Assembly (NCBI GenBank): GCA_008632985.1
Contig: QPGO01000001.1
Span: 302,600 to 366,599 of the forward strand
Reading direction: 5' to 3'
Length of the DNA: 64,000 nt
From: Psammoneis japonica
Lineage: Eukaryota
This document shows, one piece after another, positions 4,832 through 45,240 of the stretch (positions within the stretch are counted from its first letter, which is position 1; the number at the start of each line of letters is the position of its first letter). The notes under the pieces were generated by a model that saw nothing but the letters and a program-made list of their open reading frames with translations, was not told the DNA's origin and ran no database searches. The translations under genes and the position numbers were made by a program.

Positions 4832-7137
4832 TTCAACAATGTAAGAACGTGGTGGAAATACAGCGCACAAGTGATGCACTTGACCGTCATAAAAGAAGCT
4901 GCAGTCAGACATAACCAGAGAATGAGTAGGCATCATACCTCAGTGTTTGTCATACTTTTAGATAACGCATAACTTAATGTGATGGTAAAACCAAGAATCG
5001 GCATGAATCTGCGCGCTGTTCTGACCTCCGGGATCTATGTGAGCATGCGGCAATCCTTGTCCTTTTGATTGGTGCAGCCGATGCCTTTGTCTGGAAATCG
5101 TTTTGTGCAGACGACATTTTTTGTGGAAGTTCTTGGCCTCGTGCTGGTGTTCCTTGCAGATTTCGCATGCGGATTTGCAGTCGTGGTGCTTAACGGGATT
5201 ATTTTCTCTTTCCAGCTTCCATGCTGCTTCAAAAAATCACCCTCTTCTGCAACACATGCAGCTCTCTCTGCGGTGGCAGTCTTGGCTTGGGAATGGCCGC
5301 AATCCTTCTCTGGGCTTAGTTGGAAAACAGACAACTTGTCAATGGAGCTGCAGCATGAATTGAAGGCATCTTGTGCAGTGTCATGCACCAGCTGATGCTG
5401 CGGGGGTGACCACACCAACCAGGTTTTGAGTGTGCTGGTGAGCATGATCTTCCAACTCTCTCATTTTGGGTGAGTCCTTGCCATCTAGAAACTCAGCATG
5501 AGTGCCCAAATGTGATGCCTCTGAATGGCCTTGAGTTCCTGGAACCATTCTTCCAATGTGTGGTGTTTTTGGTGCAGGTCACAACCACGTGAGCTTTGTG
5601 TGTCCCTCCTTGAGCAAGTGTTCCCCTCCTCACAGAGGAGGTCATCATCTGGGTGTGCAACTGCCATCAACACAGAATGCTTTTTGATGCCCTTGGCAGT
5701 CAGGAGTGCGTTTTGCCTTTGATTTTGTCATTCATCTTTTTTGCTTTTGTTGTCATGAATGATGGCCTTAAATTTGATGCAATCTGTGCAGAGACAAGAG
5801 CAAAGCCTCACTTTCAACTCATTTGCCACCACTTGTTTCTTTTTAGAGATCATCATGTTGCTTTTCATCTCATTCACCTTGTCACCCCCAGTGTTGTTCA
5901 TGGCCAAACAGTTGACACTGTTCACTGCAAAGCTGAGAGCACCGCTTGCTGACCACATTTTTCTTGAATCTTGTCAGCTCCAGTGCAACCTGCACTGAGT
6001 GCTGTGGGTGGTGGCTTGCTTGCCACATGGCCCCATCATCACAGTGAGCAAACATGTGGTTGCTTTTGAGTGAGGGAAAAAAGCAGCCAATCATGCGTGT
6101 GGCACAGAGGAACTTGATGGACAGACTTCTTGGGCCAGTTGTTTGCCTGGTCTGGAAGCTTTGGCAAATCTTCATGATTTGGGTGGCTGTTGATCATGGT
6201 GTGCTGGGAACAAGGCACGGCACCTCACAGAGAGTTGTGACAATGTGGTCTGTGTGGCAACTTTGTGCAAAATGATCTTGCTCACTTTGGCTCTCACTGT
6301 TTTTAGCTTGCTGCCATCTCCCATTTTCTTTCAGACCAACGGATTCCCAAAATGTTTTGTTCATGTGCCAAGAGTCACCTCACATTGGCTTTGGGATTTC
6401 TCACTTGCATGGTGCAAATGTCTCTGCCAACAACTCCAAAAATGCTCCAGCCACTCCACAGAACAAAACTTGGAAAATGCAAGAAACTGATGCTTTGGGA
6501 ACCTTGGCTTCACTGTTGCTGCCAGCAATCCCCTTCTTGGAGACTTCATTGGTGAAAAGGAAGTTTTCAACTGCTGGACAGCCAAGAAATCCAAGGCTCC
6601 TGCACCTTGACCATCCGGGAATGGAGGCCGTGGAGAGATGTTGCTTCTTGCTTGAGGCTGGTGGGAAAAACAACAGAGCTCTGTCGCTGACATTAAAGCC
6701 GCTGATGTTGGCAGATGCCCCATCACACCAACCATCCAAGAAGGCACCAAAACAGGTCCTGTTGAGTCCCAAAAGGAGAAAAAGTGGAAGCATCTCAAGC
6801 CATGCCTTCAGCAGCATTGTCATCATTTCATGCCAGCAGCAGTGTTTTTGCATGATGGAGGACCAGCTGGCAAAGAAGAGGCCCAAGCATCCCCAAGGCT
6901 GATTGCAGCATGACTTTTCTGCAAACTGCAAAAACCTCATTTGGGAGCGCCGCGCACAAGCTCGTCAATGCAAGGATGGAAGCTGCAGCTGTGAGGACAG
7001 CTCACCTTGGCCTCAGAGGCCCCCACTGTCTCTCTGTCAGCATCAACCCAAGATGTGATGACTGATTGCACATGTGGGGATGCATTGCTGTCACCTGGTG
7101 GCAAGGTGCCATCTGCACACCAAGTGTTCAATCATGT

Positions 7138-7414
7138 CAACAGGATTTGAACAGGATTTAGGTGCGCGCGACATGTCGCGCGCTGTCCAGTTTGCCGCGC
7201 ACAGTTTTGTGTGCTTCAGTTCCGCGCGTTCGCGCACGGTGCAGTTTGCTTTCGAGCCACAAGGCTCACAAGAACAATGACAGTAGCCCGATTGTGCCGA
7301 CTTTGCACGTCTTTCGGCTCCTGCAACTGTCTCTGAGCGGAGACTCATCTGCCATTTAGACAGCAGCAAGGAGTTGTTGTTTGAATTCTTGCCATTTGCC
7401 TTCAATTTCTGTCA
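7138..7414 (+). repeat. 5' LTR (about 277 bp)
   Basis: 7138-7321 aligns with 13956-14124; ends CTGTCA, the inverted repeat of the 3' LTR start TGACAG. Confidence 0.8.
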
Positions 7415-7432
7415 GATTAACAGTCTTGCTCA
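7415..7432 (+). promoter_or_regulatory. Putative primer-binding site
   Basis: GATTAACAGTCTTGCTCA abuts the inferred LTR end; reverse complement contains CTGTTAA, a tRNA-Asn(GUU) anticodon loop. Confidence 0.45.
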
Positions 7433-8336
7433 TTGTCAACCCATTGAGCAACCGCCATCGTCGTCGTTGATTTACCGACGATGACACTTCAATTCTGCAT
7501 GGATCTCCGCATGTGTTCTATGCACATCGGCAAGTCTGCGCGCATTCAATGCCAGGCATCGGCAGGAAGTTAACGTCACCGTCAAATCTCCTCACCGCTG
7601 GACATCTGGATTGATTGTGCTGCCTCTTGTCGCTGAAGACATGCATTCAACGGTCACATCCAAGTCTGTCCTTGATCCTCATCCCTTGACATGCCCATTC
7701 AACGGTCAACGGTCAAGAACCCTGCACATTCAAGGATCTTCGTCGCTGAAGACACACACACATCCACATCTTCACGGCCAAGAACTTGCACCCACTCTTT
7801 GGACTGCGGCTTTGCTGCCACTCTACAAGCACACCGAGTCCATTGCACCTGATCCACCCCAGACTGCTGGTGCTCTGCAGTTCCACTGGGTCCACGAGGA
7901 CGACTGTGAGAGCAAGCAGCCGTGATTGCAGCCTACGTTGGGGCGAGGGTGTTTTTTCCCGCGTTTGTTCGTTCGTCCACAGCGCCTGACGCCTGCATCA
8001 ACTGGCCAGCCTGATCGGGAAATCCAACCGACATAAAACAAGAACGGTTTGGGGGTCTTGTCCACCTCCAGTCAGCTCACCTGCAGGGGTTTGCAACCCG
8101 CTGCTGCGCTCGCAAGCAACCCAAAGCGCCACTGGCTGCGGGTTCAGACCTGCCGGCACAACTCTGCGGACCGGATGGGAAGTTTAGCACTTGACAACAA
8201 ACGGGACAGCACAGCCCGGCAACTTCTGATTTTAAGGCAGTTCAAGATTTCAAGTCAAGTCCATTCTCACCCAAGTTTCAAGTCTGCCTTCGCGTCCCAA
8301 CAAGAGTCGCTTGTCCTGACACCACTTTTGTCTGCC

Positions 8337-11300
8337 ATGGTTCTCACTCGTCAGCAACAAACCGATGGTTTCGAGCACGTTGTTGGAACCGTGCTTGCCC
8401 AAGGTGCTGGGAGCCCTCTTCGTTTGGCTTTGACCCATGACGGCACGGACTTGCATCAAGAACTGTTCACGTTCACACCGTCCCAAATCGACTCGCTTGA
8501 GTGCGACAACGGCACTGATGTGATCCCTTTGCCCCACGGTTGTAAGAACATGTTAGCAGCTCTAGTTGGTCTGCACATTGTCAAAGCACATGAAGGTCTT
8601 GACGTTGCCAATGACTCCTCGTTGTTCACGCATGAGGAGTTCCTTGCCCGCCGCCTCAGCCCCGACTGCATGTCTTCTGTGTCCGTCGGCAGCTTGCCCC
8701 TCGCACCTCTGCATGTCACCAACCCGACCAAGGCACGCGACCCGGTGTTGGACTTCAAGCAAGGCATCAAGCGTGACCCCACCACTTTCACGGCTCTCAA
8801 ATCCGACAAGCAGTGGCACACTTGGCACACCTCACTTGTGGCACAAGCCCGTGCCCAAGACGTCAAGTGCATTCTAGACTCGTCGTACAAACCGACCAGC
8901 CCCGAAGACAAACTGCTCTTTGCTGAACAGCAAAAGCACAAGTTCGCTGTCTTTGAATGCATCCTTCTCACCGACAAGGGCAAGGCTCTCATTCGCGAAA
9001 ATGTGGGGTCTTCTGACGCCCAGACCGTCTGCCGCGCCTTGTCCGAGCATGCGCTCGCCTCCACCCGCGCTTCCATCGAGTCCTCCACCTTGCTCATGCA
9101 CCTTGCCACCGCACGTCTTGGTGATGGCACTTAAAAAGGTCCGACCCACGGGTTCATCCTTCATTGGCAAGATCAGCTGCGCAAGCATGGGGCACTCATC
9201 CCGGCCAGTGACCACTTCTCTGAAGGGCAGAAGCGTGTCATGCTCGAGAATGCCGCACATCCTGTCGAGGAACTCCGTGCCGTCAAGAACCAAGCTGATC
9301 AGCATCGCACGCAGAGTGGCAAGAGCCTCACATGCGATCAACATTGTGGCTTGCTCCTCTCCGCGGCGGCTCAATGCGACAGCATGTTTCAACCCAAGAC
9401 GACACCTCGAGCTCCCCGACGTGCCACACACGCACACGACGTCTGCTCCGAGGAACCATCCGATGATGTGTTCCATGACATCGACAGCGACATTGACGTC
9501 CTTCAGGCCAACGCTGCCTGCACCCGTGGTCCCAGCCTCACCGGTGACCAGTGGAAACGTCTCCCTCCCGACCACCAACAGATTTGGGATTCGTTGCCCC
9601 ATTCCTCCAAGGCAATCATCCTTGAGCATTCTCGTCCGCCTCCCCGCCACCCGCGAGCCAGCAACTGCCATGAGTCCGTTGCGGTCAACCTTCATGACCA
9701 ACGACTTGGGAGTGACGGTGATGTCAACTTGTCCAACACGACTCCTGCTGACTCTGGTGACCCTGCTCCAAATGTGGATGCCACTTCAGATGATCCCATT
9801 CTGGCACACCTCACCAAGCGCAAGCCACCACCACCCGGTGATCTGCAACGCCTGTTGTCTCCTAACCAACCCCCCAATGCTGGTCGACCGGGCCCATCCG
9901 CCGCTCCCTCTACCTCGCCTGCTCCTGCAGATGACACAGAACTTGGCGGCCGCACTCACCGCCGCGTTGACAACCACAATGTCATTTGCTCTGCCTCCGC
10001 TCATCGCTCCACACGCACTGGTGCTCTGGTCAATCGTGGAGCCAATGGCGGCATTGCTGGCGACGACGTTCACGTCATTGCATGCACCTCTTGCCAAGTC
10101 GACGTTCAGGGCATTGACGACCATCAATTGGTGGACATCCCCATTGTCGCCACTGGTGCCGTCATTGAGACACAGCGTGGTCCCATCATCGCCATCCTCC
10201 ATCAGTGCGCATGCACGGGAAAGGGCAAGACCATTCATTCCTGCGGCCAGCTCGAATGGCACAAACATGATGTCAACGATCGCTCTGTCAAGGTGCCCAA
10301 CGGCTTGCAACGTGTCGCCACCCCTGATGGCTGTGTCATCCCAATTGACATCAAGGGCGGCCTGCCTCATGTTGCCATGCGTCCCTGCACTGACGCCGAA
10401 TGGGACACCCTGCCCCATGTCATCCTTGCCAGTGATGACACATGGGATCCTTCCATCCTTGATCACTCTGTCACTGATGATGACCAGCGGTGCGACGCGA
10501 TCTCTGACCTGCAGGACGATCCCACTGCCAACCCATTTGATGAATGCGGCAACTGCCGTCACCGTGTCGTTGTCAACAAGGCCATCATGTCCGCCTCCTT
10601 GTCTGCCGATCACGCATCCATCCTCGATGACCACCTCATTCCGCATGACGACGTGTTCTGCGAGTGTCATCTGCATGCGATTGACCCCAAGGACGACGAC
10701 GTTCCGCCCCCGGAGTGCACTGTGCAGCCCAAGGACCCCCCCTGCGAGTCTCTTCGGCCTTGCTTTGGTTTCCAACCTGCCGATGCGGTTCGTCGTACTT
10801 TCGACTGCACCGCGCAGTGCGCCCGCATGCCCGCTGGTGCACACCTTCAGAAGGCCTGCAAATCGCCCAACCCCGCCCTCAATGTGCACCGCCGCAACGA
10901 GCCCATCGCCACTGACACCATTTGTGCCGACACCCCGGCCATCGACTCTGGTTGCACCAGCGCCCAACTGTTTGTTGGCACCGAGTCTACTGTCACTGAC
11001 GTCTGCGGCACCAAAACGGACAAAGAGTTTGTCAACACACTCGAGGATCAGATCCGTGAGCGTGGTGCTCCATCCAAACTCATCAGCGACCATGCTCAAG
11101 TTGAGATCAGCAACAAGGTGCTTGGGATCCTACGAGCCCTCTTCATCTCCCCAGCTGGCAAAGTGAGCCTCACCAGCAACACCAAAACTTTGCCGAACAT
11201 CGATGCCAGACCGTGAAGTGCGTGGCGAACACTGTCATGGATCGTTTTGGTTCGCCTGCCCACACATGGCTGCTGGCACTCATGCACATGTGCTTCATGC

Positions 11301-14059
11301 TCAACCATGCAGCGTCCCCACGTCTCCACTGGCGCACGCCCCTCGAGACTCTCACTGGCTCCACCCCGGACATCAGCCCATTGCTTCGCTTTCACTGGTG
11401 GGAACCCGTGCACTTCCACCTTGATGACTCCGATTGGCCGTCCGAATCCCGTGAGTTGCGTGGACGCTTTGTTGGCATTGCTGAGCACGTCGGCCACCAG
11501 ATGACCTTCAAGATTCTCTCTGACGAGACTCAGAAGATCCTCTGCCGGTCCAACGTACGATCCGCTGCCACCGATCCTGCAGTTCGAAACCTGCGTCTTG
11601 ATCCTCCTGATGGGGAGCCACCTGAACCCATCATCAAATCTCACCATGACGACAACCCCGTCGATTCACCCGATGGGGAGATCAGGACACCCAAGATGCC
11701 AGTTTTCGATCCGCAAGACATCATCGGATGCACCTTCCTCATGCAGCCACAAGAGGACGGACAACGCCACAGAGCTCGCATCGTCAAGGCCATTGAAGAC
11801 CACAAATGGAAAGTGAGCAGCAATCCCGAGCTCACCAAGTTCGTCTGCTCTGTCAACAACGACGAATGCGAGGAAGTCCTGGCCTGCAACGACATCATGA
11901 ATCACATTGAACAAGAAGACGAAGACACTGCTGTTTGGAAATTTCGACGCATTGTGTCACACGAAGGACCTCTGAAGCCTCATGACCCAACCTGGAAAGG
12001 CTCAAGCTGCGACATTGTGCTTGAATGGGAAAGTGGGGAGATCACGTCCGAGCCTCTTGCCATCATCGCCAAGGACGACCCTGTCACCTGCGCCATCCAT
12101 GCACGAGAGAACGGACTTCTTGACACTGATGGCTGGAAGCGGTTCTGCACCATCGCGAGGCGCCAGAAGAAGCCATTCCGCATGGCCAACCAAGCCAAGC
12201 TTTGCTCCTTCCGCACTGCACCTTGCTGCAAGTGCGGATGCGAAGTTCCCCGGAACTGCAAACATGCCATGTCACTAGACGAACGCAACGGCAACCGCAA
12301 ATGGGGAGACGCAACTAATCTCGAGATGGACCAACTCAAGGAATGCGAAGTCTTCCATGACTGCGGGCCCTCCGAGTCTTCCACTCCTCCTGCGGGACAC
12401 AAGAAGATCCAAGTGCACCCAGCGTACGACGTGAAACACGATGGTTGCCACAAGGCACGACTTGCAGCCGATGGGCACCTCACGGACGTACCCATTGACA
12501 GTGTCTGCTCCGGAGCAGTCTCCCTCCGTGGCCTTCGGCTGATGATTTTCCTGGCCGAACTCAACGAGTTGGAGACATGGGCCACCGACATTGGCAATGC
12601 CTGCCTTGAAGCCACCACCAAGGAGAAGCTCTACATTGCAGCCGGACCCGAATTTGGCAAACTCGAAGGCCACATCCTTGTCATCCACAAGGCCCTGTGT
12701 GGACTGCGCAGCTCCGGCCTCCGCTGGCACGAGCGCTTCGCCGACTGCCTGCGAGCTGAAGGTTTCTTCCCCTGCCGCGCCGAACCCGACATTTGGATGC
12801 GCAGGAACGGCGACCACTACGAATGCATTGCCGTTTGTGTGGATGACCTTGCCATTGCCATGAAGGACCCTCAATCTTTCGTCGACACTCTCACGGAAAA
12901 GCACAAGTTCAAGCTCAAGGGTGTGGGACCGATTGAGTTCCATCTGGGCTGCGACTTTTCCCGGGATCCTGACGGCACCTTGTGCCTGTCTCCGTGCAAG
13001 TACATTGAATGCATGGTCGACAGCCACACACGACTTTTTGGGGAGAAACCCACCACCAACGCCCTGTCACCTCTGGAGAAGGGTGACCACCCCGAACTGG
13101 ACACTTCCGAACTGCTGGGGCCCAATGGCATTCAACAGTTCCAGTCTCTTGTTGGTTCACTCCAATGGGCAGTGTCCCTTGGTCGACTTGACATCACTGC
13201 GGCCGTCATGTCACTCTCTAGCTTCCGAGCTGCACCCCGTCAAGGCCACTTGGATCGTGCCAAACGCGTCTGTGGGTGCCTCTCCAAGATGCGACACGGC
13301 ACTCTCCGCGTTCGCACGGAAGAGCCCGACTGTTCGGATCTCCCTGCTCCGGCCTGTGAATGGATGCATTCCATGTGTGGCGAAGCAGAAGAGATGATCC
13401 CGAAGGACGCTCCACCGCCCCTTGGCAAGTTCGTCACTGCCACCCACTGCGTCGATGCAAACTTGTGCCATTGCATGCTCACCGGACGCTCTGTCATGGG
13501 AATGCTCCACTTCCTCAACAAATTCCTGGCTGATTGGCTCTCTAAGAAGCAAGCCACCATGGAGACTGTGACCTGCGGGTCTGAATTTGTTGCCGCAAGG
13601 ACTTGTGTCGAGCAGATTGTCGACCTGCACATCACCCTGCGCTGCCTCGGCGTCCCGATCCGTGACATTGGTTGCATGTTCGGTGACAACAAGTCAGTTG
13701 TAGACAGTGCCACCATCCCGCACTCCAAGTTACACAAGCGACACACCGCACTGTTGTTCCACCGTGTGCGCGAGGCTGTTGCCTCTGGTTGCCTTGAGCT
13801 CCACTTCATCGAAGGCTCCCGCAACCCTGCTGACATTCTCAGCAAGCATTGGGGTTGCTCCCAAGTCTGGGACCTTCTCCGCCCCCTCATGTTCTGGAAC
13901 TTCATTCCATCTAAAGTCGAGTCTGTTTCTGTGACTCCTCAAGCAAACTGGGGAGTGACAGGATTTGAGCAGGATTCAGGTGCGCGCTGTTTAGTTCACC
14001 GCGCACAGTTTTGTGTGCTTTGGTTCTGTGCGTTCGCGCGCGATGTAGTTTGCTTTTGA
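8337..14059 (+). pseudogene. Copia gag-pol polyprotein pseudogene
   Basis: ATG 8337; stop 9132-9134 within DGT*KG; protease LVNRGANG (D->N); integrase TDT...SDHA; frameshift near 11150; RT KARL..DG, DIGNACL, KALCGL, CVDD (12836-12847); RNase H DNKS, NPADILSK. Confidence 0.95.
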
Positions 14060-14124
14060 GCCACAAGGCTCACAAGAATGACAACAGTGGCCCGATTGTG
14101 CCGACTTGCACGTCTTTCGGCTCC
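13956..14124 (+). repeat. 3' LTR, truncated
   Basis: Starts TGACAG after the PPT; similarity to the 5' LTR stops at CGGCTCC (14124). Confidence 0.85.
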
Positions 14125-14708
14125 GGCTTTGCGGCACATGCATGACTTCTTGAAACTCTGCTGCCAGCACTCATGTTGAGCAGTTCATTTTGCCAGAGAC
14201 ACAGGCAAAAAACAACAAGATGCCAACAAGGCATTCCTCACATCTTCAACTCTTCGTCTCAGCGTGCCTCTTGTCTTCCAGTGTTAGCTACAGCACTTCA
14301 GGTTATGACGCCGATTCTTGGACTTGGACGACAGGACGGGAAAAGTTTCGATTTTGCGAAAAAATTGCGGTTGCGATGTGACGGCTTTCAAAAAAAATAT
14401 ACATTAAACCCATGCGTAAATCTTATAATGTACGGCAACGCCTAGCTCTAACACTATCACTCATACAGTTAACAAAGTCGTGCAGGAATCACATGTATGA
14501 GGAAGTTCATATACTCTCTAGATTTATATAAGCATGGATTACGGAAGACTAACGCCGCAAACGCCAATTCGAAATTTTGAAAGAATCAAGCGAGCAAAGC
14601 AAGCCATCACTTTTCACCTGCTCGTTTCACCTTTTATTAGAGTACCGCACAGTTGGTGGACATCAAATTGACGTACGGGCCTCTGTTAAATGGTGGAAAA
14701 ACGGCATT

Positions 14709-16494
14709 ATGCTCATTGCAGGGCGAGTTACGACATCTTCGGTGAAGAAGGTTTTCTACTTTGCTTGCACGAGTTGCTTCATGATAAGGTTCTTCACGAT
14801 GTGGACCGAGCAGTATCAAATAATAAGTCTAACGCAGATCCCTCAAAGGAAGCACAAGCACGTCAAGAATAGTTCATTTGCTAATATCTCGTTACCAGAC
14901 GAAACCTACGAGACAGAAGCAGAGGATGGCCCTCAAAGGAAGCACAAGCAAGTCAAGAATAGTTCATTTGCGAAGATCTCGTTACCAGACGAAACCCACG
15001 AGGCAGAAGCAGAGGATGGCCCTCAAAGGAAGCACAAGCAAGTCAAGAATAGTTCATTTACGAAGATCTCGTTACCAGACGAAACCCACGAGGCAGAAGC
15101 AGAGGATGGCCCTCAAAGGAAGCACAAGCAAGTCAAGAATAGTTCATTTGCGAAGATCTCGTTACCAGACGAAACCCACGAGACAGAAGCAGAGGATGGC
15201 TTTTCATCAACCAAGAATAAGAACAACGAGACGTCTAGAGAACAGGAACGCTGGGATGCCTTTAAGAAAGACTATTGGAAGCGAAATCACAGACAACCCC
15301 CAGACTCGTTGAGGCAGTGGTTGGCGTTTGCTGTAGAGAAGAAATGTGCAACAAGAAGGTTTTATGATTCCATCAATCACCACCTGCAGTTCTTTCGCAA
15401 TTCTTCCTTGTCACTCGAGGATATTGTTCCTGGAGCCTCCAACTACACAAACTTTTTCGTTGCTTTTTCTCTCAAGAATAACAAGCTGAATGTCGAAAAC
15501 TATCAAGTTCCAAAAAAGCTATTTGAAGAGAAATTCCCTAGATCTGTAGAGCGCTGGCGATTGTTGCTGCGTCCTTTGGTCAAGCACAAGCCACCTCTTC
15601 GAACCAAGTTTGTCGTGAACCTCGACGACAAAGGAAACACAAAGAAAGACAGCACGTTTCCGCTTCTTTCATGTAACCACTGGTTCAAGACTCCAAACCA
15701 GGATATTACGTTTGATAATCGACTGAATTGGAATGAAGCATTAATTCCAAGCCATAATGCCCGTGATCTTTTAGTTCCATATAAATGGAGTATTGTTCCC
15801 GAAGACAAACCTGCAGGACAACGACGGCCTCGAGGACCTGAATGGAAAAAGCGAGATGACGTTATTATTTGGAGAGGTTCAACAACAGGGGAATGGTTTA
15901 CTGGTCCACGGTTCAAGCTGCTTGAAATGTTCGGTGGGTCAGGTGTCCATCCTATTGCTCTCAATGCTTCTGTGGACGTCGATTTTGCGTTTGTCAGGCC
16001 GCTCGTTAACAGCAACGAGAACGACTTGGATACGAATAAATATCGAATCGCAGACAAAATTGTTTATGAAGACATTCAGAAGCACAAGTATGTTATGGAT
16101 GTGGATGGACATGGTGAGTTAGTGAACATGGCTCATCCATGATGGTTGTGCTTCCGGCATTGGCAAAATTCTTCGTTCTTACGTACCTGCTATAATTACA
16201 GCTTTCTCAGGACGCTTCCCAAGTCTCTTGGCTTCAGGATCGCTTGTTTTTAAATCAACCAGGTATCAAGAGTGGTTTTCCGAACGTGTCATTCCCTGGG
16301 TGGATTACATTCCTGTCAAGTACGATCTAAGCGATCTTGTCGAGAAGGTCGAGTGGGCTCATTCTCATCCGAACATAGCTGCCCGCATTGCAAGACATGC
16401 TCGATCGACCGTCAAGAATCATCTTCGTCGAGAGGACCAGCAATGTTACACTTACAGGCTTCTTTTAGAGTACCATGATCTGTTTCATTACTAA
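14709..16494 (+). CDS. Glycosyltransferase family 90, paralogue B
   Basis: Colinear with paralogue A; same intron position (16114-16201); N-terminal signal anchor. Confidence 0.9.
14841..15200 (+). repeat. Coding tandem repeat, 4 x 90 bp
   Basis: CCTCAAAGGAAGCAC at 14841, 14931, 15021, 15111; unit PQRKHKQVKNSSFAKISLPDETHEAEAEDG. Confidence 0.97.
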
Positions 16495-16829
16495 GACGAT
16501 GATGGAAAAATGAAGCGTTGTTGTTAACACACCATTTCTTCGAACTTTTTGCTTGATGTGTTACCTGTAGATAGCAGAGAGATGCGAGCACCGACACTGT
16601 ACTGTAGAAGAGGATTTCCATCGCATCGATCATCACATCGGCCGCCCGTCAAATAAGCCCGCCAAAAACCCAGTCGCACTGTCCGATCTTCGCCAGGCAT
16701 CCGTGGTGAGACGCAGTGAATCGGCGCCGACATGCGACGACGCGAAGGCTTACGACGTAAGACTGCACCCCAATGTGAAAAACAGGGAGAGATCACATTC
16801 AATTACGCGCATGCCAACGTTTTAAACCG

Positions 16830-19800
16830 AGCAATCCACAAGTCAGCAGTCATTGCAAGAGCCTCCTCTGCGCAGCGCGCTTGGCAAATGCTGTGTGGCT
16901 CATTTTCAAATGGCTGTTCTTTTGTGCAGTGGTGCCACTGCAATTCACTCTCAAACTGCTGACAATGCAGTTGCTGCTCATGTGCTTCTTTCAACTTCTG
17001 GACTGTTGACAACTCCAGATTGCAGATCTTGGTGCAGTTTGCCATGTGGTCTCCCTCGTCATCCATTTCATTGAGTTCTTTTCTGGACATTTCCGCTGTT
17101 TGTGCTGCGGTTGTCCTGCACAAATCTTCCCATTGGTTGAGTCATTCACTCACTGCATCTTGCTTGATCACTGTCCCACTGCCACACTGCGCTGCAGTCA
17201 GGAGGCAGACTGTGTGCCTGCTGACACTTTGAGAACCAAGAATCAAGCCCTCAACCTGTGGGGCACAATGTGGTCTTGTGGTGGCCAAGAAGATGATGGC
17301 AGAATGGGGCCATTGTGTGCTCTTCATTCATGAATTTTCTTGTTGCACCTCACAGCCAGCGCAGGCTGCCACCCCCTCTGATCCCCCTGACAGGGGGAAG
17401 CTGTGTGGGGTCTGTGCACACTTCCCGTGCAAAAAGATTGTGCACTTCACGTGTGCAGACAGGTTGTGCATGCTTCATGCTCGCTTGCAAAGCAATTTCA
17501 AAACTGGTTTGTTGCTTGACAAATGCAGTTGCTTTGTGGTTTGCTGACAAACTGCATTTTGTAAAACACTCAGTCAGAAAATGTTTGCAAAGAGCTGCAC
17601 ATGCTGCATTGGGTCACCTCACCACCAGCCATTCTGAGCATGCAACCCATCTCATTTCATTTTCATCTGCAGGGGTTGCAAGCACATCTTCTGCTGCACC
17701 TCTGGAAGTTCTGGAAGCAAGCCACCCATCAGCGTTGGTCCACAATTCTGGACAAAGTCTTTTCACAACATGCCTGTTTCCTCCAAAAACTGTTGGCATC
17801 AAATGTGGGTGTGGTGTGGTGCTCAGAAACACTTTTGTCTTTGACATGGTCTCTCACCTTGATGATGTCTCTGCCAGCAGCCTTTTTGTCATTGGCCACC
17901 CACTTGCCCAGATTGATCTGCCTCTGAACCTTTGCCCACCTGCACACACTGTGGGGCTGCTTTGTGGCATTGCAAGTTGCTTGGCCTCCCCTTTGTGTTG
18001 TCTTGTGATCTGAACACAGTGGTTTTTCCTTCATCATTGACTGAAATTTTTGACAAGCAAATTGGATTAAAAAACAACCCCAAGTTTTAAAAATGTTTTG
18101 GTTGTTGATGACCATGGTTGCACACAACAGAAATGCAAACATTTCTTTTTTCTGGCAGCCTTGAAAGCCCTCTGTTTGTCCTGTTGCAAACCACATGGTT
18201 TTGGAATTGCTGCCCTTCTTCACTCACTGAACAAACCAATTTTCAAATCAATCAGCACACTGCACAGCCAACAAATTGTCGCTGACTTGCATCATGATTT
18301 GTGCCTCAATTTTGTCTGCAATGCATGATGAAGAGTTGCCATTGCCATGGCTGGCACAACAGAATCCAGTGTGTTGATGCAACTCAAAATGAGCTGGGCA
18401 TGTTGTTGTCCCAATCCACTGATGCTTCTGCACCACCAATGGGCTGATGACTGATGCACATCATCAGCAACCAGTCAGTTGAGCACAGCAGCCACCTCCC
18501 AGGTGCTGCAGGTGCCAGCCACCCCCCTTCTGGCTCTGCTGCTTGCACCTCAGGTGACACCATCATTGCATCTGGCACCAGACTCCCCATGTTGGGTGGC
18601 AGCAGTGGCATCTCAGGTGCCTCTCCTGGTGGACCAAGCCTTGTGACATGTTGGGCAAGCCAAGTGCATTTGCTGACACTGACACACACAGAGGAAATGG
18701 GGGCCCAGGAAACCAACAAGACTGATGAAAATGACGGATCTCTCTCAAGAGAGGACAACAACAAAGGTTTTGTTTTGAAGTGTTTCTTGGGATCAACTCA
18801 TCCCAGCAGATGTTGGGTTCTGATGATGAAGAGGGTTTGGCAGCACCAGAGCTTTCTGCTCCAAAGGAGCGTGCCGCCACATCATCATCATTGGGCTGCA
18901 TGTTTGCATCTGGAGGGAAAAGCATCTCTTGAGCTGATCACAATCTGTGGCAAGTCCAGTGCTGCTCACAACACAAGGTGCAAAGAGACCAGTGACAAGC
19001 AAAGCAAGCAAACACACACCACATTTTTTCACTTTTTGAACTTTTCTTTCATGACTGGTCATCTTGTCTTTCCAGCATCTTCAAACTCATCAAACAGATG
19101 ACTGGCATCCTCATCATCTGCCAAAAGAGTTGTCATCTGCCAAAAGAGGGGGTCACCACAAGATGGCAATTTTTGTGCTTTCCCTGCACTGCACTGCAGT
19201 CCATCAGAAGAACTGGGCCTCTTCAGGATTGCTGGAAGTGGGGTCTGACACTTCTTCCTCTGTGATGCTGTTCTTGAACTGAGAAAGGGAGTTTTTGAGA
19301 CTTGCAAGAAAAGCACCCCACCCATCCACCATTGATCATGTGCCTCCATTCCTCACCTGTGGCTTGTCAGTGTGCAAAAGCTCCTCTTCATCGTTCCATT
19401 GGCAACACACCAGAAATGCCTTCAATGGGTTTGAAGCTTTGTCTTTTTCAGGCTGCAGACATGAAAGTGGGGTGATTTTGGACACATCTTTGTGACAGAA
19501 GCAAAATGCCACAAGGTGGCACGCAATCTCACCCTGTTGACATCAGACCTTGCCAATTTGAGGGGGTGAAATTCGTGCAGGAATTTTTTGCAGGGTGGAC
19601 AAAAAATTGCAGTGCAAGTCACTTCACGCAGATGACCAAGTGGGTTTGTGGCTGCCTCTCTCTCTGGGCATTGCTCTGACAACTGCTGAACATGTTAACA
19701 TCCAATGCAAAAATGCCAAACGCAAAAATGTCAAGTGAAATTTTTGAAACACCCCCAAATGGAAATGTCAGTGGCAAAAATCAAGTGCAGATCTTTTGTT

Positions 19801-22355
19801 CAGATGTGAGCAAAACAACAAAGGAGTGACAGTTGCTGCAGCTGCTGCACTTGTGTCAAGATCTGAAAGAAGACAAAATGATTTGGTCACATGGGACAAT
19901 GGTCGCATGCAGACCAAAGAAAAAAATGAGTGCCACAAATGAAAAGGGGCACTCATGAGAGGTCAAAGTGCCAAACAACAACCTGTGGCTGATGCAGCCC
20001 CCTTTCTTGTGTCTCTGACATGCAGTGGTTCTCACCACCACATCCTCTGCATGAGCAAAAGCTCCAAGAATCTGCTGAGCATGTTGCAGCAGCAAGCAAC
20101 AACTTGAGCCAGCTTGCGCACTGAGCACATGGCATCTGCCATGATGAGAGAAACTTTCTGCACCCTCACCCCAGTGAAGTCAGGGCTTTCATGACACTGT
20201 CTCAGAGCACAAAATCAACCCCTCAAACCAGCTCATCATGAGAGTTGTCTCAGTGTCCATCATCTTTTCAATGCACCACTGCACAATGTGACTGCCACAA
20301 AGCAACAACAACAACAGGAGCACTTTGTGTTGTGCAAGTTCACAAAAGCTGTCTTCTGCACAGCTTTCTCTTGCTGCTTGCACCAAACAGTGCTCCAGCG
20401 GGTGTTCACATCTCTTGTTTTGCTTCATTTCTTCTTGCAGTGTGTCAACATGAGTTTTGAGGCTGGAGGCCTCTTTTGGTGCCAAGAACTGATTGAGCTT
20501 TGCCCTGAGACAGTTGTGAAATCCCCTTTGGCAAGTTGCAAACAAGACAATTGCCAAGTCCACCTGATGCTCTTTTCACAGACTTGCAGCCATGCATCAT
20601 TGATGACTGCACAAACATGCCACAGGGCCCAGGGAGGGTGTGTGCCCCACTGCCTGTTAGAGCAGCAACAGACAAGAAGAAGTCAGCAGCAGATGGTGCA
20701 TGAGCCTCCCTGCAAACTGGCAACATCGGTGGCTGCAGTGTGTGCTTGGAACTCCTCTGCATCAATCACCACAAGGGCAGCATTGACAACTCTCCTTTCT
20801 CAAAGGGGGCTTGGCTGGCACCAGATTTGAGGTGCAAAAAACAGTTGTTCCCAGAAAATGCAGGGAGAATGCCAGCGTTGTCCCGTCGTTGGAACATCAA
20901 GGCCAGAGGCAGTTTTTGCAGGACAGACAGACAAAGTTGCAGTGTGAGACATGCTGACAACTGTGGACAATGTGGCAACTTGTCTGCATTTGCAACTCAG
21001 ATTGAGTTGCAGGTCTTGTGCTTGCTTTTTAGATTTTGCATCTGGTGCACATGGCAACAACAGCCAGCGGCAACAGTTGTGTGTTTGCAAGCCAATTGGT
21101 GAGTTTGGAGATGCAGTGAGACTAAATGGGTGCTGGTCAGCAAGCTGCAAAGCTCCAACCCAGAAGCCAAAAAGTCACAGCACAATGCCCAAAGGAGTGG
21201 CATCATTCAAGGGTTGGGAAGTTGAGAGAAATCCACAGAGAAGAGCTGGGAAGTCAAGAGGAATCTGCAGATGAGGGCTGGAAAGTTGATGGGAATCCAA
21301 AGGAAAAAGGCCAGGATGTCAACAGGAATCCAAAGGTGCACATTGTGTTGGTGAATTGCAGCAAATGAGCCAAACAACATCTCTAGAGGGCTGTGAAGGG
21401 TCTGCTGAAACAGGGTGTGACAAGGTTGTGTGTGTCAGGATCAGCGAGACAGAGTGTGTGGCTGTTGACAAGCCATGGAACTCCGGTGCAAGTCCCAGAA
21501 AAGATGGGCAAGGACACAGCTGAGTGCAGAGAAGCACAAATGAATCAAAACAGTGGGTGCACAATTCCATTGCCTGGCTGGGATGACATGCAGATGGGCA
21601 CATGGAAACCATGAGGAAGATCATTGGCAAGCATGTGTCAGAAGAACAATGTTTGGGCTGGAGATGCAGGCACCAGTGTCTCTGAGGCAGGGTGAGAGAA
21701 TGCCAGGAGAGAGCCAGATCATCCCTTGTGGGAGGACACCATGTCAGAGAAGGACAAGGCAATCTGGGGCAAGAAATGTGATCACCATGTAAAACAGAGT
21801 GTGTGACTGCAACAAGATGCAGAAGGCAAAAGGCATTTGACACAATTGCGGGGCAATGCACAAAAGACCACTCATCACAAGCTTGAAACAGTGGGACATG
21901 GCAGCACTGCTGGATGCACTCAAGTTGATTTTGTTCAGTGCAACTGAGATGACAAACCCGTGTGTCCAGATGGTCAGGGCTTGGCAGCATCAGCTGGTGC
22001 TCATTCACCAAGACAAAGGAGAAGTGCTTCACAAAAGATTCTTGTGGTTGGCTCACAAGCATCCATGGTTGAAATGGTGGAAACATCCCATGGCAGGATC
22101 ATCCAGGAAGAAATTGCCAAGAAGAAGATGGGTTCAGCAAGGATGCTGATGATGCCTGGAGCAAAGAAAGGAGGAACAAGTCATTGGCAGCAACGCCAAG
22201 AATGGAAGGTGCCAAGGGCTGCTGTTGGCATGTCTTGAAAGACCTGCATTGGCGGTTCACATTGCGGGGGTTGACATTTGTCCCAATTCAGCTGAGGAGG
22301 CACTGCAGGTGTTGGACACCCACGGGACCAACAAGAAACCTGAGGGGGCATGAGT
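16830..22355. other. TpA- and CpG-depleted block B (degenerate, unidentifiable sequence)
   Basis: No TpA found by eye in 20041-20650; CpG rare; no credible ORF. Confidence 0.85.
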
Positions 22356-22675
22356 TATGGAATGACAGGAAGAAGATTGCACGCTAGAGAAGTGTGACAG
22401 GTTGGACATCGCAATCTGAAATCGACCAAATTCAAATCCTGCAATTGCAATCTACATCCACGTAGAAAACCTATGACCAATGCCGCTGCAAAAGCAATGC
22501 CTGCTTCGCGGTTGATGGTCCACAATAATCTTGTCACAATTTTCTTTTTTCTTTTTTCTCTTTTCTCGATCTCCGAACTACCGTACGTATCACACAAAGA
22601 TAGAGCAGTTTGAGTTGCTGCCGTTTCCTTCTCTCGTCAGACCGGCACCCTCTAACGTACTCCAAAGGACTTCCC

Positions 22676-25016
22676 ATGAGCATGTCGTTGTCCCTGCCGA
22701 GCAAACGAAAGCACAGCGACGAGTTCTCCACAAAAGAGAACTTGACGAGAGATCAAATCGATCAGTTCTTTGATGAAGATCTTTTGAATGATCGCCAACG
22801 ACTCTCGTGGGCTTACCAAACAGAGGAACGAGTGCGTCTGGAGAAAGTCAAGACCCGTGATGCTTTGGATGTATCCCATACACTTGATTCAGAGTTTCTC
22901 TTTGACATCTATCCTGATGTCGGCATCAAACTCGAAGAACGCCCATACAAAGGCAAAAAGGAGCGCCTAGCTCCAGAGAAGGATCGATATGCTTGGGAAC
23001 GCAAGTGCCATCCATCCTTTACAAAGAGTCGTTTTCCCGATTCAAGCTTTGCCTCTCTTGTCGAGTTAGACATGACTTTGCGCGAGAGGGTGAGGCATGC
23101 GAACTTCTTGAGACATGAGGACAAAGATGAGGGAAAGGCTTCGCATGAGCTGTACCGCAAGTCTCCCGTTCCACCAAATTTCTTGTGCTTTCAAATTCTT
23201 ATGAAGGCATACCTGGGTTATGACTTGCCGAGCTTTCATCCTAAAGGTACCGACATGCCGCGATGTGCCATTATGGGTGGAGCAGTGGTAGCGGTGTTGA
23301 CGGCATGGCGTCACATTGAAGTCTTAAAGATGTTCGAAGAAGCCCAACTTGAGACTTTAATACACAAGCGTGCGAAGAAAGAGAGCGGCAAAACGCAATA
23401 CAGTCGTATCAAGTCAGAACTTATATATCAGCTGCATTCTTGGTTTCAATACCGAAAAGGCGTTTCTGCAGAGACCCGCGCTTCTCCCTTCAGCACTGGT
23501 GACGTTGACATCTTTCTTCAGGCATCTCCATTGACGAGAGCACTACTACAAAGAATGAAAGATCTCGGTCTTGAAAATTCCGATGTGTATGATACCGTTG
23601 AATCATTTGTCGGCGGCTGCGGATACGTCCACCGTGACCTCGAACAAATCGTGAATTCCATCTTTAGGCAAGAAGATGACGAGTACGAGTTCTTGGGTCT
23701 TGATGAGGAAGACGAAACCTCTGATGAGGAAGACGAAACCTCTGACTTTAGAATGATTTTTGTTTTAACACAAAATGCTCTGAGCTTCATGAATACTTCC
23801 AGAGAGGAACATTTCCATCTTTCAGACTCCAAGTGGCATCGAAGGGATATCCCAGCCTACAAGTGGCCTCGAAACACGCAGTTGATCCGCCTCAGCGAGA
23901 AAGCAGATCTCGTCGGAGCCTTAATGGACTTTGACATAAGTCTTGTGGGATGCTCGTTTGACGGGAATAGTGTTAGAGTCACGCCCAGGGCAGCCTTTTC
24001 CCTCATCACATTGACTCAGGTAGTAACGCCTTTTGTTTTGGAAGAAAAGCGCAATTGGCAACGGGTTGTAAAGGTGAGATGGTGGTGTTTCTGCGTCAAA
24101 GTACGACGTTGCTTCGAAAACTATCTCACCCTACTTGAGTTTCGTACAGTACTTCAAACGAGGATTCCAAGCCTATGTATTGGATCCGAACTGTAACCAC
24201 AACGTTCAGTGTGCTAAAGGCCCATTCGGTCCAGTGGCTTGGAATCGCTCGATGTCATCAAGCAATAACCGGTACCCAATGAGCTTGAATTTCGGCACAA
24301 AGCCGTCAAGTGACGAACTGTGTGCATTCCAGAGGGAGAATTCTCCTGTTTACTGCTGCGGACACATAGGTGGGTTCAAGTATTCCTTTGTACTTTTTGA
24401 AAAGGAAGAAGGAGATGCGATACAGTTCTTTTCAAATAGGGACAAGTGGGACGACGAGAAAAAGGACGAGATCAAGGCTCTTCATCCATGGTTACGAATT
24501 TGCTGTCGAGAGTGCCGATATGAGTATGAGAATTACGTCTTTGTGAAGAGAAACCCTGAGTACGGAGGCATGATTGAAAAGGAAGCCGATGAGCTTATTC
24601 GTGGAGACAAAAGTTTTATGCGAATGAGCGGAATGAGCGGCAGGAGCTTGTTTGCTCCTTCATTCTACAGCGGAGGCGTGTTTGATGGTCGTCGAAACCA
24701 GTTTGACCCATACTTTTTCAGTTGTGCCTTCTGGAAACTAGATTCACAACTACGAGCTGAAAAGGCTCGATACTTTGTTAGGCACAGCACATATGATGGA
24801 TACAAACCAAGGTACGCTTTTGGTGATGACTTGAGGGAACTCTTTGAGGAAGTATCGGCCATGTCGCTCTCCGACTCTAAACGCAACCCGGTGGGCCTGA
24901 ACCCGGAACGATTCGTTGGCGAATGCAAGAGCTGTAAGCAGTGGCTGCTTGGCTGTGAGTATGGCACTGAATACTGTGAGAGTTGCTTGAACCAAAAACC
25001 GCCCAGTGCGACGTAG
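22676..25016 (+). CDS. Hypothetical protein with nucleotidyltransferase-like motifs and a C-terminal Cys cluster
   Basis: Two exons, intron 24074-24149 restores RVVKYFKRGF; motifs MGGAV, GDVDIF, FDISLVGCSFDG, TPRA; CxxC..CxxC at the end. Confidence 0.75.
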
Positions 25017-32519: not shown

Positions 32520-32990
32520 GGTTGCATGACGTGTAGCTTGCGTTTCATGGCAGAACAGATCACGTTGGAGGATAAAGCACATGCACCACAGTTTGCTTTT
32601 TGCCAACAGGCATTTGATGGCGAAGAGAAGCGTCAAAAAAGAATGCAAGGATAGCATTAATGAACAAAATCTAAAGCAGTGTACATTAAGTTCCACGCAA
32701 AGATGGTCCCTGCTGTTGCACGCAGTGCACATCTCGTGACGCCTTTTTGTCATTGGTTTCTAGCCACAGGCGAAGGGCTCCATGGCAATCTTGACTTTTG
32801 GCTTTGAGCAATGGCATCAGGAACATCATCTGGTGGGCTCTGAATGTTGGTTCTGCCAAAGTGATTGACACTCTCAAGAACAACAATCAATTCATTTGGT
32901 TTCCTCCATTGGCTGTTGCTCAAGGCACACACATCTTCCCTGATTTGGCTTCATGACCCAAGCCTCTCTCTGGCAATGGATGCCCCAGTC
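32520..32990 (-). pseudogene. Decayed copy of the hydrolase-like region at about 38490-38950
   Basis: ELIVVLESVNHFGRTNIQSPPDDVPDA vs ELILLDGVNHFGITSIQNPPGAIPDA; DNA similarity extends into the 3' flank. Confidence 0.8.
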
Positions 32991-33759
32991 ATGCAGGTGC
33001 CTCTTGCTGGCAGGCATCTTGCTCACAGGTCAGCAGGATGATCTCTGGATCAAAAGCACTGGACGTGCAAATTGCTGCAAGAACTTGAGGGCAGTGCAGT
33101 GCACTGGCTGAGCTGCAGCCAAAGTGAGAGCTGCCATGCTCTCTGGCATGCCACTGGCACTGCACTCAATCCTGCAAACATGAGGGCAGCACAGGGTGAG
33201 AGCTGGGAGAGATCTGTTGTCAGTTTGCACCATCCCTGCAGCAGGAAATTGTTGTGCCACACATGCTTCTTTGGTTGGCACACCATCCAACAAAAACTCT
33301 GTGTTGTCTTCTTTCCCCACAGAACAGCGCTGTGACATCAAAGGGCCAGGAAAGGGCATTCTGCCCCATGTGCAAGAGAAGTGCAAAGAAAAGCATTTGT
33401 TGCACATGCAGTTCTGCACAGTGTGACCCACCTGCACACCACCATTTTTTTTTCGCAGCACAAACAGATGCACCACACCCTGCACTGTTGCCAAAACCCC
33501 ATTGGCAATTCCTGCAATGATGCAACTCAGCCAACACATGGCTCTTGCACCACACAGCTTTGATGCAGAGCAGCACAACTTCATCGGCACTTGCCAGAAA
33601 ATCACATTGCAAAAAGCAGAGCAGGGCACAACATTGCTGCACCCACCACCAAAAAAAGCAGGTGTGTCATTCTCTTTGCCAATGGCATTGTGGACCAACA
33701 TTGGAGATGCATGCCTTGGCCTGCTGTGGCAGCAGCGGAGCACAGAAGAAGACAGCAAA

Positions 33760-34035
33760 ATGACAACCACATGGGAGCAGCTCTGGTCAATTCAGAGCAG
33801 CCTGCAGATTCCTTTGGCAATCTTGTCAATCATTCTTGGATTGGCAATGACCACTGCAGTTGTTCTTCAAGAACAGAGGAAAAGCCAGAAGCAAACACTC
33901 ATGTGCCATGCTGGGTCTTGCATTTTGGTTGTCTGAGTCAGCTCCTTGGGGCATGGCACTTGGGCTTGGGGAGCTGCCTTTCATGTGGAATGATTTGGAC
34001 ACATGTGCACAGCTCAGGACTTTCTCTTTGTCTTG
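33760..34035 (+). pseudogene. Decayed 5' fragment of the GPCR-like gene at 36744
   Basis: MTTTWEQL..LQIPLAILSII vs MPPTLEQL..LQIPSAILSIV; DNA alignable with an internal deletion. Confidence 0.85.
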
Positions 34036-42829: not shown

Positions 42830-45240
42830 AAACACACAACATTGTCACATTGGTCGTCAATGACAACAACTTCCGTTGCAGGCCAGCATCCTGACCTTTG
42901 GGTCTGGAGCTCCAGCTCCACAAGTGGGCCTCTGCTGCCATCAGCGTCTTTGTCACAATTGATGAGTCCACAAGCACTGCAGACAAAACTGAGCGCACAC
43001 CACATTGGGAACCTGAGCACTTCTTAACCCCACAGAGAAGTGATGGCATGCAACTTTGAGAAAAGGCACAAGCTCAGTGCAACACAGCTCAAATGATTGA
43101 AAAAGTGAGCTTCATTTTGGGGGCACTCAACAATTTTCCAGAACTTGTGGCCCAGAAAAGCTGCACTGCTGCGCCCACATTGTCAGATGGGCAACATCAG
43201 TGGGTGTGTCTTCAAGTGAATGTTGTCATTTCACAAAAAAACTCTGTTTTGGTGGGAAATGATTGCTTGGGGTGCCCAGCACCAAAGTTGACCTGCTCAA
43301 AAGACTGAGAGTGTTCAATTTTCAGCTTGGCACATGCTTGCACAAACAGCACCAACTGGTGCAGTTGGCAGAGAAGGCATCAAAAGAAATTGACAGGTGC
43401 AACAAAGCCACAGCAGCTTGCAGGAGAGCAGCACAGCTCTGCACATCATGAAACATTTTTCTGCTGGTGTCAACAGTGGCATGCTGAAAGAGCTTTGTTG
43501 CACCATTCTTGGGTGGCAGATTTGCCTGGATTGTGTTGTTCAAAAGTGCTGCCAAAAACCTGTGATGATGCCCCCTGCATTTGTGTTGGAATGATGCTGC
43601 TGTCACTGAGAAAAAAAATTTCCTTGTTGTGGTTGAGTTTGGTGCACATGACAACACTTGGGTGCCCACCTTGCTGCCCCACATTTTTGGGTTGAGCTGG
43701 CTGAGAAAGAGCAAGCTTCAAGAAAGAGACAGACATTCCCTTGTCTTGCCTCTGTCAGTTTGGGCTTCTTGAATCCCGGGCACAGTGCTCCACACATCAG
43801 CACCATGTGTCTCCACCAGAGCTCAGTTGCTGTGTGGCGCCAGTCAAAGTTGCTCATTTTGCACCAGGCCACCACTGCAGACCACTTTTTTGCTGCATCT
43901 TGTCTGCGGGTGCCACACTTCAGCAAGAGAGACTGAGCATCATGATGCTCAAACTGCCATCTGCTGACAAATGTGTGGCAACTTGACTTCAACTGCCCTT
44001 TGCAGCCCCCCCTTCTCTTTCTTGTTTTCAGCTTCAAATTGACACTGCCAAGTTGAAAGGCAATCACCCACCTGTGGAGATGTGCTGAGCTTCAAATGTG
44101 GAGACAGCACCACCCTTCACTTTTTGCTGAGTTTTGATCATCACCAGGCAATGGAGCATCGTCAGCACAGCAAGTGCCTCAGCATGTGATTGTGTTTGCT
44201 GGTGGCACTGGCGTCAGTCATAGCACCTTGCCATTTTTTGACTTTGCTTGTGGACTTTTGTTGAGCAAAACTTGGGGGCACACCCAGCAACAAATCTTGC
44301 CTTTCACGCCTGACATTGGCAAGGCATGGTGGGAAGTGTTTCTCCTCATTTTGCTCCCCCCCCCCCCCCTTGCTGTCATTTTTGCATGAGGTCACCAGGA
44401 GCAAACTCCCAGGTGGGAAGAGTTGTGCCAAGTGCTGCTGCTCTCACCCCATGCACAGCCTGGTGCATCACACAGACTCCCACTTTCATCAATGACAGTG
44501 GTTGTTGCTGTTGTTGCACGACCACCCATTTTTGCACACTCTGCCACAACATTTTCCACATTTCCCTTTGAGCTGTTGTCTTCATTTTCTGCCTCTTTTT
44601 CTCAAGATGAGCTCTTGCTGTGCACAGTGCTGCCAGCTTGTTTGCATCAAAAATGGTGCTCAGCTGGGGCACCAACTGCAGCAACAGCGGGCTCTGCATG
44701 TGGCAGACTGCCAGTGTCATTTTGTGGGTTGTTTTGTGCAGCCAAAGTTGGGGTGCTGATTTTGACTTTTGCAGTGTTGTCATTGGAGCTCACAAGAGAA
44801 TTTTCTTGGGCAGACAGGTGGTGTCCCACCCAGGTTTGCTCTGACCTCACATCATTGGCTTGAGAAGTCCCGCTGCCCAGAGCCGAAACTTGTTGGCACG
44901 TTGGCGAGATTTTCATCAAGCACTGCCAAAGCAGATGTTTTCCAGAGCAGCGGGCCACTCCACAGGATCAACTGGGTCCTGACTTGGTGGCTGTCCAGCG
45001 CTGAGGAACATGGGCATGAACATCATCAGCAGATGTCTCCACACTGCCCCTGACCCCCGCGGTGGCTGTTTTTTGAGTTTGGCTGGATCTGGCGCAACAA
45101 AAAAATGATTGGGAAGAAACACACATCTGAGCAATGGTCCCGCAAACTTTGAACAAATGAAACCTCGAAATTAAAAAATCGAAATGATGCCAAGACGTTG
45201 CCAGGTGAGACCGGGTGGTGCCCATTTGGCTGTGAGTCAG
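42830..45240. other. TpA- and CpG-depleted block D
   Basis: Only about three TpA seen by eye (43025, 44221, 45171). Confidence 0.85.

Follow-up and report, generated by a model that had tools for sequence, protein, structure and literature searches.

A 64,000-nucleotide stretch of the genome of the diatom Psammoneis japonica (GenBank assembly GCA_008632985.1, contig QPGO01000001.1, positions 302,600 to 366,599 of the forward strand; hereafter the window, with positions counted from its first letter) carries blocks of DNA from which the dinucleotide TA has been almost completely removed by hypermutation. This TA hypermutation is real, is of a kind described once before, in Bigelowiella natans, and has a TAY motif, in which the A is followed by a pyrimidine. 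The direction of change, its occurrence on both strands, its timing after insertion, the tracts that start at the 5' end of elements, the context profile, and the restriction to transitions are all observed directly. We judge it probable, with modest confidence, that these post-insertion tracts are produced by a DNA adenine deaminase that is drawn to silenced mobile elements and serves to defend the genome.

Within the window, a two-state hidden Markov model on TA defines six TA-poor blocks that total 27,028 bp and contain 91 TA. These blocks, with 0-9 TA per kb and with CA and TG doubled, alternate with gene islands that have about 40 TA per kb. The block of greatest interest here is flanked by genes that keep about 40 TA per kb:

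16824..22355: main saturated block, 5532 bp, poor in both TA and CG (9 TA, 38 CG)

The original prediction proposed that the TAs left in saturated blocks are mainly TTAA, TTAG, CTAG, or CTAA, and that RTAY is almost never seen. The nine survivors in the main block bear this out: GTAA at 17562, TTAA at 18068, 18088, and 19696, TTAG at 20658 and 21030, CTAA at 21123, CTAG at 21384, and GTAA at 21790. Seven are YTAR, compared to a background of 15% (p = 5e-5), two are RTAR, none is RTAY, and none has a pyrimidine after the A on the + strand. Across all six blocks the 91 TAs comprise 51 YTAR, 23 YTAY, 10 RTAR, and 7 RTAY, versus 222, 445, 339, and 451, respectively, among the 1457 TAs in the 36,972 bp of the window outside the blocks. 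Block proportions thus differ from the background (chi2 = 103, p = 3e-22). Retention per kb, inside relative to outside, rises from RTAY (0.021) through RTAR (0.040) and YTAY (0.071) to YTAR (0.314), which is the order that had been anticipated, with no difference between YTAY and RTAR (p = 0.15), which are reverse complements of each other. YTAR survives longest because neither strand has a pyrimidine after the A. The positions that had been quoted as examples are exact for the six within the main block and for 43025, 49940, and 50942, whereas 45171 should be 45172.

The main block is a mosaic of degenerate old repeats, pieces of which match many genomic places at 66-90% identity. Given this degeneracy and the lack of a recognizable protein family, the block cannot itself be polarized. 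Neither its five open reading frames (ORFs) nor its six frames with stops read as X gave a Pfam match above the cut-off, and a search for internal repeats revealed only short, chance-like pairs. Its recognizable components are as follows:

20888..22394: one unit of a repeat family that other loci carry in head-to-tail copies (about 1.7 kb); its homology and the TA-poor block end no more than about 40 bp apart
about 17006-17151, 17606-17930, 19220-19300, and 19597-19946: other old repeat fragments

Short contigs of public run X1 match the block save for two listed substitutions and four rows of 1-base indels in the repeat part, and therefore base-calling error does not account for the TA loss, with the proviso that run X1 is possibly the source sample and hence not biologically independent. 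Both substitutions between the assembly and run X1, at window positions 20085 and 20877, are CG versus TG/CA.

A copia retrotransposon elsewhere in the window offers a coding sequence, but no unmutated copy of it was found among 30 fetched loci of 40 scored, and other families were therefore used for polarization. An RVT_2 search of the genome (91 Mb in 597 contigs) identified families with both TA-normal and TA-poor members. For one of these, the L160 family (L161-L179), 20 full-length loci were fetched from 42 matches; a real unmutated copy with identical long terminal repeats (LTRs) served as the reference and two further copies as validators. Compared to this reference, 17 copies kept TA at 2156 sites and read TG at 1025, CA at 801, CG at 7, and something else at 23, such that 1826 of 1856 changes at TA sites are to TG or CA. 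TA>CG is almost absent because one hit removes TA on both strands. The changes are clustered in kilobase tracts, and copies range from untouched to saturated.

Rates inside and outside tracts were determined per strand in 10 copies that hold both states. TA>TG occurs at 37.6% in tracts versus 1.8% outside, and AA is hit at only 1.3% in tracts. Other A>G changes amount to 0.97% versus 0.23%, and CG>TG rises 5-fold, from 0.56% to 2.8%. Other C>T changes are not raised (0.26% in tracts, 0.37% outside), which departs from the C>T at CpA rule of repeat-induced point mutation (RIP), and neither are transversions (0.06% versus 0.08%) or, in 9 copies, indels (13/38858 versus 10/18839). Once context is modeled there is no sense-strand bias (factor 0.92), and strand-coordinated runs are absent (of 1710 adjacent pairs, 896 share a strand, with 879.5 +/- 17 expected under the null, p = 0.17). 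The rate contrast has a lower bound of about 145-fold (37.6% versus 0.26%), and any per-generation rate is only inferred here.

Paired LTRs reveal when these changes arise. Their differences are mainly TA losses (8 TA, 1 CG, and 0 other in L173; 14 TA and 5 other in L176), and L164 has a single LTR difference in 348 bp, yet 137 of its 173 tract TA sites have changed. Therefore, the process acts after insertion and is far faster than the background. Sites mutated in two copies share the identical state in about 55-65% of cases, with the exceptions of L166/L170 (78/78) and L161/L173 (67/86). The first pair is allelic: the 5' half of L170 carries the same mutated states as L166, but neither the TA mutations nor the older CG changes appear in its 3' half, either because a young copy converted that half or because the assembly is chimeric there.

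In each of the seven partly mutated copies whose target-site duplications match, the tract begins at most 500 bp from the 5' end and spares the 3' end, with the main run ending at 2.8-5.4 kb of the 6.6-kb element. TA is low in the upstream flank beside L173 and L176, but not beside L162. Copies of 6.6 kb that are 98.5-99% identical stay unmutated, which a time lag or a length threshold could explain. A threshold or lag is also possible for a 97% identical 90-bp tandem array (360 bp) within a gene at window 14840-15200, which lies outside the TA-poor blocks. Two pairs of host paralogues likewise lie outside them (3618-4829 versus 15268-16489, 77%; 41323-42540 versus 46668-47865, 62%), so being duplicated may not by itself be enough to set off the process.

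The motif was fit with a competing-hazard model on 1966 observations from 12 copies, bootstrapped over sites; L161, L175, and L170 (recombinant or chimeric) and L172 and L179 (no tract) were left out of the final fit. Relative rates by the base at +1 are 1.00 for C, 0.81 for T [0.65-1.05], 0.44 for G [0.35-0.61], and 0.24 for A [0.18-0.31]. In the same model, A at +2 (0.51) and T at -3 (0.47) are protective, and rates by the base at -2 are 1.0 for A, 0.79 for C, 0.69 for T, and 0.65 for G. The motif is thus broader than TAY, and A-tract-like flanks (TAA, TANA, TNTA) protect further. Of the sites that have TAY on one strand only and TAR on its complement, 96 changed mostly on the TAY strand, 17 mostly on the TAR strand, and 12 equally on both. 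Survival in the tracts of this family is 154/331 for YTAR, 186/898 for YTAY, 40/197 for RTAR, and 65/676 for RTAY. A second family (L121 compared to L122 and L127) gives 13/31 for YTAR and 2/62 for RTAY, with a direction of 57:23. A short high-copy element (L131-L150) adjoins the copy L061/L121, with about 105 bp of the query found at 96-99% identity in more than 20 places.

Off-target changes point the same way. Non-TA A>G in tracts affects 116 of 7012 AY sites versus 19 of 7893 AR sites, a 7-fold difference (p = 4e-21), and this bias is independent evidence for one agent that reads the +1 base. With the +1 rates measured against unmutated copies, the 96:17 strand direction, two more families, and this off-target bias, the earlier proposal that the preferred substrate is T-A-pyrimidine is well supported. 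That proposal had also likened the agent to TadA-family deaminases, and here the outcome is divided. TadA acts on UAC(G), and the 5' T and the preference for C at +1 agree with it. Assignment to a TadA-family enzyme does not gain the same support: TACG is not favored over TACC or TACT, hairpin-loop sites are not faster (factor 0.59, 60/474 strand-sites; factor 1.0 for unpaired probability; repeated sites uncorrected), and the TadA/ADAT genes of this genome look ordinary.

The copia element of the window is the third family to carry this signature:

11105..14059 (+): dead copia pol frame (RVT_2) in which YVDD reads CVDD

At 25 Tyr columns conserved in 36 homologues, this element has Cys at 17, His at 4, Phe at 2, and Tyr at 2. 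In 29 other copies the same codons start with TG 379 times, CA 139, TA 136, CG 1, and something else 56. TA is thus the ancestral state and was lost earlier than CG, because conserved Tyr codons read TG or CA while the CG of the element is mostly kept. TA is kept at 90/224 YTAR sites versus 63/596 RTAY sites in the family, and TG:CA is 618:312 at YTAY and 57:117 at RTAR; the base that precedes Tyr codons did not alter TG:CA (p = 0.2). Without TAA and TAG, dead elements also hold open frames that lack Tyr and run to about 2200 codons at most, some of them overlapping (window 8878-14059; genomic RVT_2 matches).

The remaining TA-poor blocks of the window and the neighbors of the main block are listed here:

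5037..14284: TA-poor block with the younger copia retrotransposon (about 7178-14127); TA lost, CG largely kept (observed/expected, o/e, about 0.8)
14553..16491 (+): left flanking host gene, glycosyltransferase-90-like, TA normal; nearest named relatives from the diatom Seminavis robusta
22604..24196 (+): host ORF flanking the block on the right, TA normal
32688..36330: TA-poor block, 13 TA, with a relic of the neighboring 7TM-receptor gene at 33754-34086
42830..45244: TA-poor block, 3 TA
48347..52769: TA-poor block, 17 TA; the relic of an FG-GAP gene lies at 49253-49474
51340-52763: 496-bp tandem repeat in the preceding block; unit differences are largely TG/CA/CG/TA steps (21/39)
57677..59443: TA-poor block, 3 TA

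The sequence of events that we favor begins with the insertion of a transposon copy, kilobase tracts of which then gain TA>TG and TA>CA on both strands, fastest at TAC and TAT. The agent would be a DNA adenine deaminase that converts A to inosine, to be read as G, and its fold may be that of ADAT2/TadA or of ADAT1/ADAR. Targeting could be by silent chromatin, by transcription from the 5' LTR, or by both, as the 5' anchoring and the co-localized CpG decay suggest, and the purpose might be genome defense. The slower CG loss in tracts would be ordinary decay of 5-methylcytosine (5mC), yielding the end state free of both TA and CG that is seen at 16824-22355. A deaminase is the best fit because the mutagenesis is transition-only, affects both strands, needs a single hit, and reads context. 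A natural ADAT2/3 can deaminate deoxyadenosine (PMC10354150).

Candidate enzymes are encoded in the genome:

L153: TadA-like gene
L156: ADAT2-like gene
L180 and L182: A_deamin genes

The ADAT2-like protein carries CRNDRFGG, in which the Asn is equivalent to TadA D108N and is common in eukaryotic ADAT2. This Asn is needed by amphioxus ADAT2 for DNA editing (PMC10354150). Besides an ADAT1-like gene there is a second A_deamin gene (L182:1114-2408, on G000:C79), which lies about 300 bp from a TA-free block and is conserved diatom-wide; its relatives are annotated as dsRNA-specific editases, with only PF02137 listed, and an Atlas search with it returned A_deamin clusters only. Among the nine PF00383 matches are ones that we label by motif, and thus presumptively, as dCMP deaminase (twice), TadA-like, ADAT2-like, RibD-like, and two small-substrate-like deaminases. 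One gene (L155:313-1785, - strand) fuses a deaminase domain to a 2OG-Fe(II) dioxygenase and probably serves purine salvage.

Several observations weigh against a recruited adenine deaminase. Profile searches of the genome found no expansion of candidate families (nine matches to PF00383, five of the same to PF14437, and two genes for PF02137), and the TadA/ADAT genes have the look of ordinary housekeeping genes present in one copy each. Amphioxus BjADAT2 prefers GAA/TCG and hairpin loops when editing DNA (PMC10354150), and differs from the process described here, which shows neither a preference for hairpins nor an increase in C>T outside CpG. ADAR has its hot spot at UAG (PMC10661471), and this motif is disfavored here; ADAR also differs in that there is no sense-strand restriction here and the LTRs are not identical. 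Also, the partial tracts of L161 and L175, whose flanks are swapped, and of L170 stem from recombination or chimeric assembly, and the comparison with run X1 covers window 14300-24300, with the young, partly mutated copies lying outside it.

The same data can be read from the other strand. A>G at TAY is equivalent to T>C at RTA, and therefore the strand of the lesion is not separable by sequence. A T-modifying activity at R-T-A, causing T to mispair with G, would produce the same outcome, which is the exact reverse of the CpA>TpA change of fungal RIP. There are 27 genome matches to PF00145 (C5 DNA-methyltransferase), and several copies have an H(A/L)SPPC motif, by which we take them to be RID/DNMT4-like. 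To our knowledge no enzyme modifies T in this manner at such a rate. No Tet_JBP match was found in the genome, which is weak evidence since the control was uninformative (no match anywhere), and thus absence is not shown; Pur_DNA_glyco also had no genome match, with a control that matched in 4 of 14, so again absence is not shown. Overall, a thymine lesion appears improbable. Nearly the same, perhaps a shade less, can be said for error-prone repair of the Pol eta/mismatch-repair type (WA motif), set off when methylated CpG in silenced repeats gives T:G mismatches. The 5-fold increase of CG>TG, the kilobase length of tracts, and the 4-fold increase of non-TA A>G are compatible with it. The spectrum of Pol eta, as in antibody somatic hypermutation, includes AA within its WA motif and many transversions, and here AA is hit far less than TA, transversions and indels are flat, strand-coordinated runs are absent, and TA loss exceeds the supposed trigger more than 10-fold. 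A two-step route, wherein the adenine of TpA in silenced repeats first receives a methyl group (N6-methyladenine, 6mA) or some other mark and is later deaminated or miscopied, would resemble 5mC decay in CpG and possibly RIP, and it predicts a strict dinucleotide rule, changes confined to transitions, hits on both strands, and tracts that follow chromatin domains. Described eukaryotic 6mA is mainly at ApT in genes, and we consider this route unlikely.

Artifacts of assembly or base calling, including chimeric joining of mutated and unmutated copies, must be accounted for, because haplotig-like duplicates and frameshifts occur in the assembly (L157) and three copies have swapped or shared flanks. 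Run X1 contigs nevertheless reproduce the block, the allelic contigs agree at every shared mutated site, seven partial copies have matching target-site duplications, and unrelated public copia sequences carry the same scar, making this explanation very unlikely. Least probable of all is ADAR-like A-to-I editing of the retrotransposon transcript before reverse transcription. It can point to the second A_deamin gene, with diatom relatives annotated as dsRNA-specific deaminases. It is largely refuted by the equal hits on both strands and by TA differences between the two LTRs of one copy; TA is also missing from gene relics, tandem repeats, and duplicated methyltransferase genes, and the ADAR hot spot (UAG; PMC10661471) is the wrong one.

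The closest known parallel is in B. natans, where the main text of a preprint reports TpA-restricted hypermutation (A>G) of integrated NCLDV and virophage DNA, measured in mutation-accumulation lines (Mettrop et al., bioRxiv 10.64898/2026.01.13.699255). In that text an A-deaminase is proposed, not shown; the per-generation rate is about 1000-fold, with activity in a subset of lines, and TpA-poor coding sequences include transposon domains (bioRxiv 10.64898/2026.01.13.699255). As far as that text describes it, the B. natans process is like the present one in changing TpA to TpG/CpA on both strands of chromosomal DNA, regionally, far above background, in foreign or mobile DNA, with genes spared. 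It differs in host and target, being found in a rhizarian with single-copy viral inserts, whereas here a stramenopile carries it in multi-copy retrotransposons, old repeats, and gene relics. Saturation is also greater here (o/e 0.01-0.07 per kb versus a Rho of 0.45 in the B. natans NCLDV region), and the extended TAY motif, the 5'-anchored tracts, and the coupled CpG decay are features of this genome unlike those in the main text, which describes no extended motif and is silent on diatoms; data relevant to the motif may lie in its supplements.

Other systems share some of these traits. RIP of ascomycetes depends on RID/DIM-2 and makes C>T changes at CpA in strand-coordinated clusters. It is similar in being a post-insertion, in situ, transition-only destruction of repeats, and methyltransferases that we take by motif to be RID/DNMT4-like are present here. 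However, the direction is opposite (TA>CA/TG here, CA>TA in RIP), strand-coordinated runs are absent, and near-identical 6.6-kb copies can stay unmutated. TadA and ADAT2-ADAT3 resemble the agent in their A:T>G:C outcome, the 5' T, and, given the UAC preference of TadA, the C that is best at +1. AID/APOBEC hypermutation and Pol eta A:T mutagenesis also make targeted, promoter-proximal tracts on both strands, but here A:T rather than C:G is affected, transversions are lacking, and AA is spared.

TA-free DNA in this genome extends to gene relics, a tandem repeat, and duplicated C5-methyltransferase genes. The last of these (L189, L190, L191, and L195, on G000:C301 and C297, with HASPPC) are themselves depleted of TA and Tyr, and the related genes L185, L186, and L192 look intact. 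In public data the Tyr>Cys/His scar was seen in 1 of 120 homologues (P0078) and in 5 of 145 scorable representatives (P0336, P0380, P0298, P0316, P0390). Among metagenome loci, 79 of 80 are unmutated, a proportion to be read in light of one of the two scan patterns requiring Tyr and of assemblies favoring intact copies. The exception (L246) reads Cys or His at 11 of 21 conserved Tyr and has 66% nucleotide identity to the family in this genome. These scarred public rows may include close relatives of this organism. No report of TpA hypermutation in diatoms was found in the literature, with most subscription papers outside the coverage of that search.

Efficient natural adenine editing of chromosomal DNA is not yet tied to any enzyme, and adenine base editors for laboratory use had to be obtained by evolving TadA. 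P. japonica adds a second, distant lineage with saturating TpA hypermutation, and its motif (TAC>=TAT>TAG>TAA) together with 5'-anchored tracts provides a fingerprint for enzyme screening. More speculatively, and at somewhat less than an even chance in our estimate, an adenine deaminase with the TAY signature, guided by chromatin or transcription, could be a RIP-like defense shared by diatoms and chlorarachniophytes among the SAR protists, one that loads close to the 5' LTR and moves through the element until TA is gone, and would thus be a natural adenine base editor for chromosomal DNA. The hypothesis raised for B. natans becomes testable in genetically tractable diatoms. Besides killing transposons, the process distorts their dating and can erase transgenes rich in TA as well as duplicated genes. 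Furthermore, its removal of TAA and TAG stops leaves dead elements with long Tyr-free frames that gene callers accept.

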